Program-made: the position numbers and the translations under genes | The notes under the pieces: model-generated | Database searches by the model: none | The model's input: only the letters and a program-made list of their open reading frames with translations | Told to the model about the DNA's origin: nothing | Shown: positions 2,656 to 49,513 of the stretch, piece by piece | Position numbering within the stretch: the stretch's first letter is position 1 | How the letters are laid out: every line of letters starts with the position of its first letter | Assembly: GCA_026023565.1 (NCBI GenBank) | Contig: JAPETS010000007.1 | Span: 558,001 to 622,000, forward strand | Reading direction: 5' to 3' | Source of the DNA: Cirrosporium novae-zelandiae | Taxonomy: Eukaryota | DNA: 64,000 nucleotides

Positions 2656-4898
2656 CTAAAACGTGTTATTGTTCACGTCAAGCATATCCCACAAGTTAGC
2701 CCATGGATACTCTAACTGACCGAAGCCAGCATCCGAGTTAGGGATAGATAGTATGTCAGGGATATTACTGCCTTCTAGCCACGGGCTCTCATTTTGTTCG
2801 CCTCTTGTGTTGATCGTGGATAGGCCGTTGTCGACATTGGTTGTAGATAGGTCGTTTAATTCACGAGTGATGTCTTGGTGAAGGGATGGAGCATTGATCG
2901 TAATTCTTATAATAGGCTCCTCACATCGAGCAAGGAAAATATCTGCAAGATCCCACTCATTTTTGTCCTTAGCTTTTCGAAGCTGATCCCTGAAGAGCCT
3001 CAACTTTGTTTTACAAGATTCCGAAATGACTGGATCTTTGGTATCGACTGCGCAGCGTAATAGGATTATTGCTGCAGAAGCAAGGTGGTATGCAGTATCT
3101 AGGAAGAATAATTAAAATCAGTCATCATAGGCAAAATAATATTTCCTAGAACGAGGTTTGAATCATACAAGGTAACCAAAACTCCTTGAGATGGTGTTCC
3201 TTTAAGGAGCAAATGAATATTACAATATCGCCGGCAGCTTGCCGTAGCTTCGCCAAACGGTAGTGGATGGCTTCAGGTACATCTATATCAGTCAAATGAG
3301 TGGCTTCCTAATTGTCTGTCAGTGCTTGAACGGCACGTTATCCAAAACACATAAACCACATACCCGTAAAGCAACTCGGCAGAGCAACATCTTGATCGAA
3401 AGATATCCAGTTCGGAGGCTACATGATCCGGATACAGATGTACTATCAACACTTCCATGATCACTCACTTTTAGATAGCTCGGAAGGCAATTTTCCCATT
3501 TATCAAGAGCAGTCTCAAGATCGCGAAGCCTTCTTGAGATCTCTCTGTGATCTATTTTAAGGCAGTACACAAGAGTCAGTATTTCTCCTAATAATTCGGA
3601 AAGCATGCAAAGACTGATAAAGCATTCCGCTGCTCGTTTCCGCTCTCCTGACTCTTTCCCTGATGTCAAAAGCATAGAGAGTTCTGGGACAGGCACATCA
3701 TACTGGTTCGAGTTGATGTTAGGAGGTGTTCCATGTGCCATTGCCGCCCTATAATCCTCAGTTACCGATTCGGGGAGTCACCAACATGCAGTCGCACCAA
3801 CAATCATTTATTAAAACTCCCCACCACAACCTAATGCGAATATGCTTGTCAATTGTGGACCCCCGCCACGTCCTTGGATCTCTGTTTAACCCCAAGCTAT
3901 GTGCAAGTGAAACGGTTCGCCCTATGTTAATAATGTTACCCATGATTGAGTAAATAGGCCTCCCGAAAAGATCAATAATCGCCGCTTGAACAGTAGATAA
4001 GCTTGGGGCCAAGAAATCATCCTGTAATGCAGTCACCGCTGTGTTCCAGGCATATCGGATATCTGGCCTATGATGATATCTTAGGATGTCTGAACGATCC
4101 CAAAATATCAGGGAGCTTGCGTATAATTCACAAATTAGAGTTGGTGAAAGCTCAGCTTCACCCTGCTTATGCAGTCCTAAGGATGACTGTTCGTCCAGTA
4201 TAGGAAAGCACGGGTGTATATATTTGAAATAACTACAAAATATATGATATCAGCGATTCGCGCTATCACCTGGGGGCATGGTCAGAGTACATTGCAATCA
4301 GTTCGTGAGTATAAGGACCTAGAATCTGCTCGAGAATTTCCAGTTGCGCTTTCCCAGGCGATTTTGCTAGTTTCAGCCCTTCTCTTCGTCGGGGTACTTT
4401 TAGGTATAAAATTGGATTTCGCGGATCATCAGAGACAATGTTGTAAGGTTGTGATTGCTGCGACCCAATGGATGGGCTTGAAGGCAGACATTGTTGAAAG
4501 ATCCGGACATCTTCTGCTACCATTGGCCCGACGACAATTGAGGAATCTGCAGAGTCGGTCTTTGCGTCTAAGCCTTCAATCTGTCTATTACACGTCGTGA
4601 TGACTGTTGAAACATTTTCATTTAGTTGCAATGTAGGATCCTCGGGAGCTTGACGACGACGTTTGGAAGCTCGCTGAGGGCTAGACAACTCTGTATCATT
4701 GGCATCTTGTGCTTTGGAGTTTATAGATCCATGGTCACAGACGCTCAGATTCAAACGACAAAGTAGACAAGGTTGACCTGGGAGGTCAACGACGCAGCGT
4801 AACTTTCGCTTGCGGCAGCGGTCACAGGCCGGGTTCTTATGTGATCGATACGGTCGTTGAGATGGCAACGAAGTTGAAAGAAACTGGGATTTAGACAT
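2656..4898 (-). CDS. Zn(II)2Cys6 transcription factor with fungal-specific TF domain (4 introns)
   Basis: CDRCRKRKLRC...CLLC...C cluster; YFKYIHPCFPILD, LGLNRDP and RIRLWW middle-homology motifs; exons join in frame through GT-AG introns. Confidence 0.9.
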
Positions 4899-43303: not shown

Positions 43304-44956
43304 TTATTCCTCCTTCGATCCATAATTGACACGGTGCCAGGCATTTGTTAGCAGACCCCTAACATTCCAAATTGCCATATACTCCCCTGGCTGGGTATTG
43401 TAAGCTTCATCCACAGCTTTCACCACAAAACACCTTCCTTCTATCTCTGGTGGGACGATCCATCGCCATTGCTTCCATGCCCAAGACTTGTAGCCGTGTG
43501 CAGGATTTGGAAGTAACTGCGCTTGATACCAAGTTTTCCCACTGTCAGCACTGACATCCACCCGCACAATATCACGCCCTCCGCCAGAGAAGGCATAGCC
43601 TTCTACCATGACCGACTGGGGAGATGCAGTGTCCTTTGCCTTCACAGGAAAATATTCACTGATCTTGGTAATAGCACTCTGAACTGGGAGTTCTTGAATG
43701 GCTGATGCCCCCTCCCACTTGAGTTGATGAGCGCTCTCATTAGGACCAAAGACTTTATAGTCTTTTTGTTGCCAGGTTGATGAAGATTCCTCTTCCGCCA
43801 ATACAACTTTGTTTACCCATTTCACACTTCGCGTTGCGGTATGACCTGGAACAATAGCTCTGAGAGGATAGCCATGATCTGCTGGGATCGGGTGGCCGTT
43901 CATTTCATACGCTAGTATAACATCACCGCGTTTGTCAACCGCTTTATCAATGGGAACAGAAGCTCCATATGCCTCAGTACCGGTGAACTGGGCATGTCTC
44001 ACGTGGTCCGGAATATCATTGATCGGAAACCCAACATCAGCAAGGATATCTCTCAGACGGACTCCAGTCCACTCCGCTGTAGATATTGCGCCAACACTCC
44101 ATGGCAGGCCCATCGCCGGTTTTGCCTCTTCATTCATGTGCTTCCGTCTATTACCAGCACACTGCAGCGTGACCGTAACTGTGGCTGGTTTGAATTTTGT
44201 TTTAAGATCCTCCAAGGTGTATACCTTCTCCGTGCCATCATGCAATTCAATGCGTAAATTATGAGCAGATTCTCCAGCCCCAGGAACCCAAAGATGATTT
44301 CTCACAAAGTGTGTCTCGTTCGGTGTAAGAAAGCTTTGCAATTCTTGCGAGGGTGTTTCAGAATTACATGGTCTTGCGGTATGTTGTTTCAGCCTGGGAT
44401 CACGCTTTGGATCTGCCTTGAATGGGTCATCGATTCCTTCGACTGGTACTTGGCCATTCACAAGATCTCGTGGATCAACGTCGCCAATATAGTACTCCTC
44501 AAGTATATCATATACTTCCTGCTTCTGATGTATGCTGAAGATATTCCAGTACTGGTCAATCACACCGCCTGCTGCGCGCAAAATGACATCACCCCCTGGA
44601 TGACCTGATATCCAATCTGTTATGTCATATACACGTATACCCTTTATGACCCATTTCCTCTCAGCATCTCTGCCATGCTCCTTCACCTCAGACAATCGAA
44701 TTTCTGGGCAGGGTTCGGCATCTGCATCAGGAACGTAGTATAAGACAGCGGAAGCAAGAACGATGGTTACAATACCAATTCCGAAAATTTTAGAATGGGA
44801 GCTTTTCGAGAAAGCATCGCTAGTGGTTATGAAAGACTGTGTGGCATTTCGTGAGGAATTAATGAGGATCCTCGGTGAGAACTTGACGATGCGTTTCGGT
44901 ATTGGTCTTGGGGCTGAAACCAACAACTTCCGAGCCGTTTGCTTCATTCTAACCAT
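43304..44956 (-). CDS. SUOX: Sulfite oxidase (cytochrome b5, Moco-binding and dimerisation domains), intronless
   Basis: VYDITDWISGHPGG b5 motif; FVRNH, LQCAGNRR (Moco Cys), DHGYPLR, SVKWV and KAVDEAYNTQP. Confidence 0.92.
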   Translation of the reverse strand: MVRMKQTARKLLVSAPRPIPKRIVKFSPRILINSSRNATQSFITTSDAFSKSSHSKIFGIGIVTIVLASAVLYYVPDADAEPCPEIRLSEVKEHGRDAERKWVIKGIRVYDITDWISGHPGGDVILRAAGGVIDQYWNIFSIHQKQEVYDILEEYYIGDVDPRDLVNGQVPVEGIDDPFKADPKRDPRLKQHTARPCNSETPSQELQSFLTPNETHFVRNHLWVPGAGESAHNLRIELHDGTEKVYTLEDLKTKFKPATVTVTLQCAGNRRKHMNEEAKPAMGLPWSVGAISTAEWTGVRLRDILADVGFPINDIPDHVRHAQFTGTEAYGASVPIDKAVDKRGDVILAYEMNGHPIPADHGYPLRAIVPGHTATRSVKWVNKVVLAEEESSSTWQQKDYKVFGPNESAHQLKWEGASAIQELPVQSAITKISEYFPVKAKDTASPQSVMVEGYAFSGGGRDIVRVDVSADSGKTWYQAQLLPNPAHGYKSWAWKQWRWIVPPEIEGRCFVVKAVDEAYNTQPGEYMAIWNVRGLLTNAWHRVNYGSKEE

Positions 44957-45875
44957 TCAATGCCACTTCAAAGACTCAACAAAATGGTATCTTCAAATAC
45001 AGTTTGCGTATATCCAATACCCTAGGTTCGGAAGATTTAGAAGCGAGAGGAGACAAATTAAGATGGTTGTGATTGCATGCACTCTGTACCTCCAGTCTGT
45101 GGCACAGTACATGTACAGTATCTAGACAGAATAAGCTAGATAGACAATAATAGTTGCAGTTAATTGCAATAAATCCTCTAGGAAATAAGAAAGAAGCTGC
45201 TTCCAATTAAAAAAGAACAAACGGACGACGATGAGAAGACATAGCCAGTGGATGAGAGTGTAACTAGACTAGATAATTAATTACGTGGTTACTTGATACC
45301 TACATGCACAGGTAAGTAGGCGTCTATAGAGTTATGTAGCTATGGACATTGAACCAATTAACGAAAATGAGGCGTCTGAGGATGCGGAGACGTGCAGTGT
45401 GGTGCAGCAATACAAAGTTATTATTTACTGTCTGCTTTCCTTTGGAACTCTCTTCCAATCATAAGCGGTGTAGCTCTCACCGACTTAGATTAGCCGAGAT
45501 ATTCCTAAAGTAGTAAACAGCTTCCATCCCAATTCCTTATCATATATTCTACCTACGTTTCGCCCGTTCCTTCTTGTATTCCGCAGCAACCACAACGGCG
45601 CATCTCTCAACAATTATGGCATCCTCAAAATATAAACGCAAGTACGATACCGACCCCCCACAAAACCCTAAGGTCGGGCGCCATAACAATATTGACAATA
45701 ACGAACAGCAGATAAAGGTCACTCCAAGGTAAATAATTCCAAACTTATATTTTTTCTTTCCCCAGTCAGACTTGTGATTTCATCTATCTGAATATCAGTG
45801 CGTCTGCCCTCAGCTTTACCAGTCAAAGAAAATAGCAGCAAATAAAGCGCTCAACACAAGCATTTCATTTCAAAC

Positions 45876-47315
45876 ATGTCTTTCGAAAAGCCTCGGAGCG
45901 ATCGCGACTACTTGGCTCAATTGTTGCTAACCTCTTGGTTAAGTTCCTTGAATAATAACTATCTGAGCCATCCCAGTGCCCTGGCTTGTGATGTCCTCAT
46001 CCTCGACTACCTCGTGTATAAAGCAACCAAGGGACTGCTTGAAGTGCGCCGACTTGAACGAAGGGCGGGGTTCATCTACGTTGATTACTGGGATGTCACA
46101 AACCTCATTAAGATGGTGGACAGTGAGTCTAGTTGATTCATTTCCCAGGTCACATTTCCTAAGCTCTAACTAATGAATATCATGTCCCATCAGGTTTCGT
46201 ATATATGTTCCGGGGCAATCATCCCGACTATCAATTCAACGACGATCAAAGATTGAGACTTAAGATCTGCCGATTCGCTATAACCTTCTGCCGCCGATAC
46301 CAGGTGGCCGAAAATCCATATAAAGTACAAATGTTATTAAATATGCGGGAGAAAAATACGGCCAGGGCAGAGGCATGGCAACTCGAACACTCTACCGAAA
46401 TCCCCGACAAAAAGACCATAAACTTCAACCTCGGCGATGAGCCAAACCCACAACCAATCCTTGAAAGAATCCGAAGTGGTATATCTGTTCCTCCTACATG
46501 CAAAGCTTACGGCCAACCGGAAACAATGTCACTGTTGGACATGCTGTCAGAACTCCTAACCCTCACGGCACTTGAAGCCAAACGACATAAAGTAGTAGCA
46601 TCTGACATGACTGTGGAAATGATCCTCAAATATATGATGCAAGCAGCCCTCGAACAGTACACCGTGTTTGGGCAGACATCCATTAGCCGAGTATACGAAG
46701 CATTTTCCTATGGCTGGACCGACCACATGGCGCTCCAAGGCGATGACAAGGACCTCGCAGAATTGTTCGAAAACGACAATGGATATCACGAGCGAAAGGA
46801 CTGGAAAGAAAAAAGGGCAGAATACATGACCATTATCGTAAGTCTTACCTCACATTTCATTTATTCCCTCACTCCCTCATCCACCTCCTTCAAAATCCCC
46901 AAATACACTTATACACGCAAAAGCTAACACACCTACCCGCACTTAAAAGCTTAACAAACCTCCCACCCTATCCTGGCTGGCCCACTTCGAAAACCTCACC
47001 AGAACCCACACCATGGATGCCACTGAAAACATGGTCCTCAGGTACCTCGAAGAGCTCTTCAACGTGCAAGAAAAACCCGAAATCATCCAAATCCTCAATG
47101 GCACCCTGCCAGACGTGTCCAAAGAGGAGCAGGCCACTCTCGCCAACTACCTACTATATGGCCATGCCAGGCGACCTGAATATGTACGTCGGCGTGTGGA
47201 GGAACAGATTATGGCGGAGAATATGGATCCGGTTGCGAGGCAGGGGGGTGTAGTGGAGAATGTGAGGCACGGGCATACGGTGCCATTGCAGGAGAATATG
47301 AATGAGAGGGATTGA
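45876..47315 (+). CDS. Fungal hypothetical protein; introns 46123-46193 and 46838-46949; start uncertain
   Basis: Three ORFs join in frame through GTGAGT..CAG and GTAAGT..AAG introns; ILDYLVY and YMMQAALEQY motifs. Confidence 0.7.
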
Positions 47316-47959: not shown

Positions 47960-49513
47960 TCACATTACAATGCAAGGCGTCATCTCCTTGAAATCTGGCC
48001 CATACATATCCACACCGGCCAAATACTCGTTCTCCTTTTGTTTCTCCTTAACCTCCTTGGGAAAATTCTTCTTTAAGAACTTCACGAGTTCGCGATCGAT
48101 GTTATCGCTGTCGGCCTGCATGACCACGTTCTCCCGACATAGGGGGCAATGATCTTGGTTTTCCCGCTGCATGACTACGAGACAGCGGATGCAGAATGAG
48201 TGGGAGCATCGGAGGCGGACTGGTCGCCAGGCTATCCCCATGCAAATAGGACATTGGTAGTCGTTAACTTGTGGGACGGTAGGGATAATCTCCTGGGATA
48301 TTCTGGCGCAGATGTCTTTGGCGACGGATTGCGCCATGAAAGGATCCGAGGCGATTGTTTGAGGGAAGGATTTACTAGCACGGAGGGCGGTGTGTTTATC
48401 GAATTCTAAGATCTTTTAGCCTGCTTGCGAAGGATTTAGGGTACGGAGTGAATCACTTTTCAATATCTTGGTCAGAGCCGTTCTATTAATCTCCTGGAAT
48501 TTTAGTATCTTCAGCACCTCTTCATTCAACTGGATAAAACGTATCACCCCGATCCCACCATCGAACTTGAAAGCATCAAGCATGTGCTGCTCATTAGCCT
48601 TGTCAATGAACAATTGCAGGCGCTTAGAAGCGTCCACGCTCGTTCGTTGTCCTCTATCGCAGGCTCTAGTAGAGAAAAATATATCGGAGTCGACATAAAG
48701 ATCGAACAAAGTACGCCAAGCATATAGATTTGATTTTGCGACTTTCTTTTTCTTAGGCAAATCAACGGCTTTTGAGATTTCATCTCCAAGCTCTTTGATC
48801 ACATCTTCCAAGTGCCGTTCTTCCTGTTCATGAAGCATATCCAGAGTTGTGATCTTGTTCATTAAAAGCTCAAAGAAATCTGCGTTAGACATCAAGGGTA
48901 CTTCCACGATCCTAGCCGGCTGTAGAAATTCGGGACTGGTGTCAGATTCCTGCCTTAGCTCATCTATGGAAGAAGTGGAAGAAGTGGAGGCAGTGTCAGT
49001 TAATTTGAGATTCTCCATCGGATTCATGACCTCCTCCAGGCTCTCGGGGGTTGAAGGTTCATCATCAGATAACTCGGTCACTTTTGATTCCTCGCGTTTG
49101 GCAACTGCGAGTTTTTGCAGATAGGACCAAGTCTCCGGCGAAAGAGTGGCATCAAGAAGTGTTGCATTGTCAGGATCAACCAGGAATATCAATTTTGGAC
49201 GAAACAATTGCGACTTGTCTAGCACAGATTAGCATGTATCTATAAATTGGTTATAATGAATGCTTAAATACACACCAGCGAAGGAATACTGGAAAATTGG
49301 GTGAAGTTGGCTTGACCTTGAAGTGGAACCAGGATTATCTAGAGATTGCCATAATAACTCGACGGTTTTCCTATCTAGGCCAAGACCCAAAAGCTCCCTC
49401 TCAACTCTCTTTATACATTTCTTCAGTTGCTTATAGTTGATGGCGGAGCTAACCCACTCCGGCGGGAAACCCTCCTTCTTGAGGGTTTGATCAAGTTCGT
49501 GGCCAAACTTCAT
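47960..49513 (-). CDS. SPX-RING E3 ubiquitin ligase (Pqr1/NLA-like); 2 introns
   Basis: MKFG...YKQLKKCIK and INRTALTKILKKFDK (SPX); CPIC...CSHSFCIRC...CPLC RING; ends CIVM. Confidence 0.9.

Follow-up and report, generated by a model that had tools for sequence, protein, structure and literature searches.

The sulfite oxidase gene and its surroundings

The window, that is the whole stretch of 64,000 nucleotides analyzed, from the fungus Cirrosporium novae-zelandiae, carries on its minus strand an uninterrupted open reading frame, coding for a sulfite oxidase of 550 aa if counted from the first ATG (Met1), or of 547 aa if counted from an ATG three codons downstream (Met4). The N-terminus of the longer form reads MVRMKQTARKLLVSAPR. 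The frame and its domains are localized as follows:

43304..44956, minus strand: uninterrupted open reading frame, cytochrome b5-type sulfite oxidase
44477..44695, minus strand: cytochrome b5-like haem domain, residues 88-160 (PF00173)
43772..44296, minus strand: molybdopterin-binding domain, residues 221-395 (PF00174)
43325..43705, minus strand: dimerisation domain, residues 418-544 (PF03404)

These three Pfam families, all above cut-off, are the only ones found in the 550-aa protein, and nothing else appears at E 0.1. Their order (Cyt b5, Oxidored_molyb, Mo-co_dimer), with no reductase (FAD/NAD) domain, is the one that defines animal-type sulfite oxidases, and the succession of haem b5, Moco and dimerisation domains is the same as in the chicken enzyme (SOX, PDB 1sox). 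The latter aligns with residues 83-545 (E 5e-121), the molybdenum-ligating cysteine being present as Cys266, opposite chicken Cys185.

In a protein search, where 8000 candidates were scored, the best 119 non-self matches are 53-64% identical to the query, and no relative closer than 64% was found among the candidates scored. Those of the 119 that bear an organism name come from ascomycetes, for the most part lichen-formers and black yeasts. A metagenome scan by six patterns, one of them the peptide MVRMKQTA, yielded 24 loci, none closer than 61%; one metagenome contig features two tandem sulfite-oxidase-like genes (L014:1392-2456 and 3001-4065). When residues 1-75 were searched among proteins of 302-963 aa, only the self match was returned (1 of 40 candidates). 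In a tree built without P0002, the 547-aa form of the query in the protein collection, and without the fused P0072, the query lies on a long branch with a support of 0.28, and its placement was not achieved. At the DNA level, one run (X1) covers the whole stretch with zero differences, and may be the window's own source; two other runs (X2, X3) match in three short pieces, less than 90% alike, none of which covers the N-terminus.

Beyond the presequence, no substantive difference separates the protein from animal-type sulfite oxidases such as chicken SOX, or from the ascomycete orthologues annotated as sulfite oxidase. What sets it apart from the family is a possible three-residue extension and a histone H3-like word, absent from 269 homologues. 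Judged from its sequence, the gene is a complete, ordinary ascomycete mitochondrial sulfite oxidase, a new member of the animal-type family.

Two neighboring genes were also noticed. Some 660 bases away from where the sulfite oxidase begins lies a divergent, apparently intron-split gene (45617-47315, plus strand), of which a 240-aa piece matches no Pfam family above cut-off. Further on (47960-49027, minus strand), an SPX domain and a C-terminal RING finger are found in separate frames, probably belonging to one intron-split SPX-RING protein.

The mitochondrial targeting signal

The protein N-terminus, ahead of the haem domain, is composed of three elements:

44789..44956, minus strand: basic, acid-poor, matrix-targeting-like stretch, residues 1-56
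44732..44788, minus strand: hydrophobic, stop-transfer-like segment, residues 57-75, located by hydropathy
44714..44725, minus strand: A78-D79-A80/E81, likely processing site

The initial annotation had described a basic, acid-poor stretch followed by a hydrophobic segment, as in a bipartite intermembrane-space signal, and this description holds. Composition and hydropathy, on which the call is based, show 12 K/R and 1 D/E in the first stretch, followed by the most hydrophobic 19-mer of the protein (residues 57-75, Kyte-Doolittle 2.31). A similar basic and hydrophobic N-terminal signal is found in animal-type sulfite oxidases.

For comparison with the family, 85 full-length-like starts were kept from the 119 matches, after dropping 3 not beginning with Met, 7 without the anchor motif and 24 with a leader too short or too long. 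Just ahead of the haem domain, 50 of the 85 orthologues carry the motif A/V-x-A/T-E/D-small, which suggests the processing site listed above; the query features a Pro at its final place. The alignment with the mature chicken chain begins at residue 83. In vertebrate SOX, the signal is cut by the inner-membrane peptidase. By analogy with the vertebrate enzyme, which resides in the intermembrane space and has its N-terminal signal cleaved (PMC10574614), and from the anatomy of the signal, the same location and a similar cleavage are likely for the fungal protein.

Resemblance to the histone H3 tail

Two short segments of the presequence recall the H3 tail:

44927..44956, minus strand: H3-like decapeptide, with KQTARK at 44927-44944
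44906..44914, minus strand: APR, one residue off the H3 register, in register with the A-x-R-P columns of the orthologues

H3 loci were obtained by a pattern scan of viral contigs, where 13 of the 119 matches listed are H3 by translation; the reference sequence was taken from locus L067, and loci L125, L062 and L063 were confirmed by Pfam (Histone). Some of these viral H3 genes are variants. Three of them (L049:281-730, minus strand; L063:689-1147, plus strand; L121:289-618, plus strand) carry a Trp-containing insertion of 13-17 residues in the tail, just after the K27 motif, with the histone fold intact, and the same tail text is found in L065, L103 and L106. In another (L139:289-618, plus strand), Lys replaces R2, and the tail is altered and lengthened after P16.

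The alignment originally proposed, 11 identities over 18 H3 positions with one gap, was reproduced: the one-residue gap may be placed anywhere between query residues 10 and 15, and 7 of the H3 residues 1-9 are matched in exact register from the first ATG. Without gaps, and including Met, 8 of 10 residues are identical to H3 Met-K9, while residues 11-23 match at 0 of 13 positions. Local alignments, by both BLASTP (19.2 bits) and Smith-Waterman, end at K10. The proposed extension of the H3 match into APR is thus seen in the gapped alignment; it is not seen in the ungapped one, and the local alignments leave APR out.

Under a composition model, the probability of at least 7 of 9 matches in exact register is 6e-8 with the composition of mature proteins and 8e-7 with that of presequences, and about 0.001-0.008 in-register matches are expected per genome of 10000 genes, so that for a single gene or genome the match is a rare one. 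Over 5e6-1.5e7 gene starts, an assumed gene number, 0.3-0.9 such matches are expected at this generic rate, before counting the other well-known tails that a reader would spot. When the register is left free, the match is modest: 647 of 200000 shuffles reach the H3 score of the query, which is 33, and among 256 homologue N-termini the top score is 31.

KQTARK is, moreover, a common word: 106 of the 119 listed pattern matches in viral contigs are not H3, and in two of these a long open frame reads MKQTARK. Non-histone viral frames at L042:701-718, L132:301-318 and L078:701-718 contain MKQTARK or MAKQTARK, apparently at a gene start or close to one, which indicates that the word arises easily. 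A PDB search with residues 1-30 gave no match at E 10. Residues 1-50 matched no Pfam family at E 1, where three real H3 proteins scored as Histone and PAF; with a match so short, both tests are weak.

Choice of the start codon

The H3 register depends on which of two ATG codons is used:

44957..44959, minus strand: in-frame TGA, directly before the first ATG; without splicing, no longer N-terminal extension is available
44954..44956, minus strand: Met1 ATG, first in-frame AUG, with T at -3 (weak context), required for the H3 register
44945..44947, minus strand: Met4 ATG, with A at -3 and followed by AAG, homologous to the orthologue start

An intron in the 5' leader, with its end at the TTAG that precedes Met4, is not favored, as the 60 bases upstream contain no branch-site-like word. 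An out-of-frame upstream ORF of six codons lies at 45058-45078 (minus strand), some 120 bases ahead of Met1, and could affect start choice if included in the mRNA leader.

In five orthologue loci, from about two independent lineages, the start is visible: it reads purine-N-N-ATGAAG, and an in-frame stop precedes it by 2-5 codons. In fungi, strong starts are rich in A at positions -1 to -3, whereas a first AUG of weak context is leaky (PMC7049704). As for the possibility that the downstream codon is the true start, Met4 fits both orthologues and start context better, which leans against mimicry as well as capture. The 547-aa form P0002 also begins at Met4; this was a program's choice, not evidence. 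Met1, as the first in-frame AUG, may still be partially used. A weak upstream AUG, followed by a strong in-frame one, is a known route to two isoforms in fungi (PMC7049704), and the query shares this arrangement with the fungal dual-AUG genes of Wallace et al. 2020. In the genes described there, the targeting sequence lies between the two AUGs, and the products go to two locations (PMC7049704); in the query, 9 bases separate the AUGs, and the signal is present in either product.

Orthologue starts

Among the 85 orthologue starts, 31 begin with MK and 14 with MKQ, while none begins with MV; MK starts are scattered over several clades of the tree. The usual start of the family is M-K-Q-x-x-R-x-L-x-x-x-A-x-R-P, corresponding to Met4. 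Counted from this residue, 8 of 19 positions of the query agree with the residue most frequent among the orthologues (K2, Q3, R6, L8, A12, R14, P15, I20). Mean identity to the 85 orthologues is 2.44 out of 16 when anchored at Met4, against 1.37 +/- 0.29 in 20000 shuffles (P 0.0007), and 1.33 when anchored at Met1. The best orthologue, P0089, matches 9 of 16 residues from Met4 without gaps (P 0.0002, best of 85). A weighted profile, for which orthologue starts were clustered into 50 groups, gives the same picture: with Met4 as first residue the query scores 6.4 bits (P 0.0007), which among held-out orthologues would rank between the 75th and 90th percentile, and with Met1 it scores -4.3 bits.

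From this Met4-anchored match it follows that K4, Q5 and R8 of the H3 match, as well as the A and R of APR, are family letters. APR itself, as far as the aligned sequences indicate, is placed by the family register and not by the H3 one: in P0056, APRP is found at the same distance from its own start as APR in the query, in columns A12, R14 and P15 from Met4. What lies beyond the family consensus is limited to T, A, K, the Pro of APR, the upstream ATG and the Arg before Met4. T4, A5 and K7, counted from Met4, are rare, being found in 5, 1 and 3 of the 85 orthologues, respectively, where the modal residues at positions 4, 5 and 7 are L/R, L/R and A/V; the Pro of APR is found in 3 of 85.

None of the words KQTARK, QTARK, KQTAR and TARK occurs in the 269 homologues from two protein searches, and the longest word shared by the H3 tail and the first 60 residues of homologues is 4 residues. 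The lack of KQTARK retention leans against capture and mimicry. Similarly, no M-Z-R-x-K start was found among 256 homologue starts, none of which is closer than 64% identity.

Possible capture of an H3 fragment

The initial annotation had suggested that an H3-tail fragment was captured and reused as a presequence. In its recent form, the first ten H3 codons, from a gene or a cDNA, would have replaced the presequence start by recombination at the shared K-Q-x-x-R letters, a graft tolerated since H3 tails are basic and acid-free like presequences. We regard this as very unlikely. Exact register from the first ATG, identity at 8 of 10 residues, the sharp end at K10 and the rarity of T, A and K in the orthologues speak for it, and the likelihood ratio of a 10-codon H3 graft over pure descent is 2e4-3e4 before priors. 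With the nearest homologue at 64% identity and a tree support of 0.28, a recent, lineage-specific event would not show in the present comparison. The ratio, however, is brought down by the low prior of such grafts alone: if the prior is assumed to be 1e-6 to 1e-4 per gene, with a factor of 1 in 20 for the breakpoint, a posterior of 0.001-0.13 results. A graft would also require that T3 of H3 became ATG exactly at the ancestral start of the family, complete with ATGAAG and A at -3.

Nor do the codons favor a graft. Only 3-4 of the 10 are identical to those of any of ten H3 genes, and DNA identity over the decapeptide (20-22 of 30 bases) is no more than the peptide alone gives, being equal to that of random back-translations (P 0.29-0.85, window codon usage). 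AGA, CAA and CGG, used by the query, belong to the minor codons of the three H3 genes for which usage was counted. The ten genes compared come from viral contigs, are non-fungal and were picked by a codon-fixed pattern, which makes the test a weak one.

The missing introns had been taken as a sign of capture, the gene being described as intronless among intron-rich neighbors. The frame is indeed uninterrupted; the contrast is overstated, as 8 of the 29 other ATG-started ORFs of at least 150 aa in the window run for at least 450 aa without a stop. The intronless state is common to orthologues: a single open frame encodes the whole orthologue in L002 and L006, and nearly the whole of it in L001. 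Seven of the 24 metagenome loci are intron-split, but those match as short pieces, at 32-57%. Since close orthologues are intronless too, missing introns say nothing on capture. The genes in positions 30000-60000, minus the sulfite oxidase ORF, found no match in the flanks, at most 3 kb long, of the 24 loci, a comparison uninformative at such distance.

An older graft may also be imagined, in which the presequence of the whole ascomycete clade derives from H3 residues 3-18, the present species retaining more of it than others. When H3 is placed on the profile of orthologue starts from K4 onward, it scores 3.7 bits, a value reached by 0.35% of 50000 shuffles; this register is the best of 20. 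Some orthologues also carry K-A-x-R at the places of H3 K14-A15-x-R17. Yet this register was chosen via the query, which resembles both, and correction for 20 registers raises the probability to about 0.07. More than 3 residues of H3 K4-K9 are matched in none of the 85 orthologue starts, the modal residues at positions 4, 5 and 7 being those given above. Presequence drift is, moreover, probably too fast for one lineage to retain an unselected copy. Of all the explanations considered here, an ancient graft appears extremely improbable.

Possible histone mimicry and modification

Alternatively, selection may have shaped the resemblance. An ancestral MKQxxR start would have undergone point changes and gained an ATG upstream, to give a Met1 isoform that, after Met removal, begins with V-R-M-K-Q-T-A-R-K; its K4 would be bound by H3 readers, or methylated by COMPASS, ahead of import, which would connect sulfur metabolism with chromatin or serve to regulate the import itself. 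Such selected mimicry seems highly improbable, although some features fit it. The motif iM-Z-R-X-K, where Z may be Val, defines H3 N-terminal mimics and is found in 48 of about 21000 human proteins (PMC8166343). From Met1, the query reads M-V-R-M-K, in agreement with it; from Met4 the motif is absent. Of the five positions constrained in the MLL4-WRAD motif, the peptide agrees with four, Met at -1 falling outside the motif (PMC12551112), and the dual-AUG arrangement is a known fungal source of two isoforms (PMC7049704).

Against these features, the motif alone, at the human frequency just cited (PMC8166343), is common, being expected in 0.4% of presequences, and it is missing from all of the 256 homologue starts. 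The two AUGs are three codons apart and both products retain the import signal. Histone methylation writers and readers work in the nucleus, and the segment is probably removed on import, away from them. Of the suggested histone mimic there remains, if Met1 is used, the fit of M-V-R-M-K; the absence of the motif from the homologues speaks against selection.

The H3TMs described by Chen et al. 2021, among them VRK1, BCL11B, TSHZ1 and PCLAF, share the iM-Z-R-X-K start with the query as read from Met1 (PMC8166343), and the query goes beyond this motif, since Q5-K9 match H3 too. Those followed up in that report are nuclear or chromatin-linked, several with a family-wide motif; in the query, by contrast, the ATG has a weak context, no homologue features the motif, and the mitochondrial signal is probably removed. 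The query is not classed as an H3TM, because the motif hangs on an unproven start and no homologue retains it.

H3K9-type mimics with ARK(S/T) include G9a, influenza NS1 and LIG1. The query shares T-A-R-K with them, but lacks S/T at +1 and Gly at +3, and ARK[ST] is absent from the whole protein. DIM-5 requires R8-G12: G12P abolishes activity, and S10A or T11A greatly reduces it (PMC3248561). In place of R8-K9-S10-T11-G12, the query reads R-K-L-L-V, with L-L-V following K9 where DIM-5 needs S10, T11 and G12, which speaks against the K9 site as a DIM-5 substrate. A literature search found no peptide-array specificity data for fungal Set1, and a titles-level survey of reports on histone mimics and mitochondrial presequences found no mimic on a presequence.

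Origin and meaning of the resemblance

Very probably, the H3 likeness is a chance effect on a family start already reading M-K-Q-x-x-R, in a normal, vertically inherited ascomycete sulfite oxidase. The family start at Met4 already has K, Q and R in common with H3 K4-Q5-R8; drift in a fast-evolving signal, rich in R/K/T/A, may have supplied T, A and K, and the ATG three codons upstream, together with the Arg codon before Met4, would complete the H3 register. The precursor would be made with its basic presequence and hydrophobic stop-transfer segment, sorted to the intermembrane space and lose about the first 80 residues. By analogy with known sulfite oxidases, the enzyme is expected to oxidise sulfite, electrons passing from Moco to haem b5 and on to cytochrome c. 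Since both start forms keep the whole targeting signal, the H3-like letters would serve just as part of the import signal.

H3 capture or a working histone mimic are, in comparison, unlikely. That the presequence is a true mimic of H3 1-9, arisen by either graft or selection, with the Met1 isoform V-R-M-K-Q-T-A-R-K read or methylated at K4, is a quite unlikely reading, even taking both routes together. If true, the histone methylation machinery would be linked with the detoxification of sulfite, or with import into mitochondria, and, as far as the literature search shows, no histone mimic had been described before on a mitochondrial targeting signal that is cleaved off. H3 tails and presequences would then be exchangeable, and the link between H3K4 methylation and protein import would be testable.

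In the ordinary reading, the gene is one more fungal sulfite oxidase, and matters little as such. It offers a calibration for histone-mimic calls: an in-register match of 7 out of 9 residues can arise where the family start reads M-K-Q-x-x-R, and before such a call is made, one should look at how the orthologues start, at the context of the start codon and at what follows K9.
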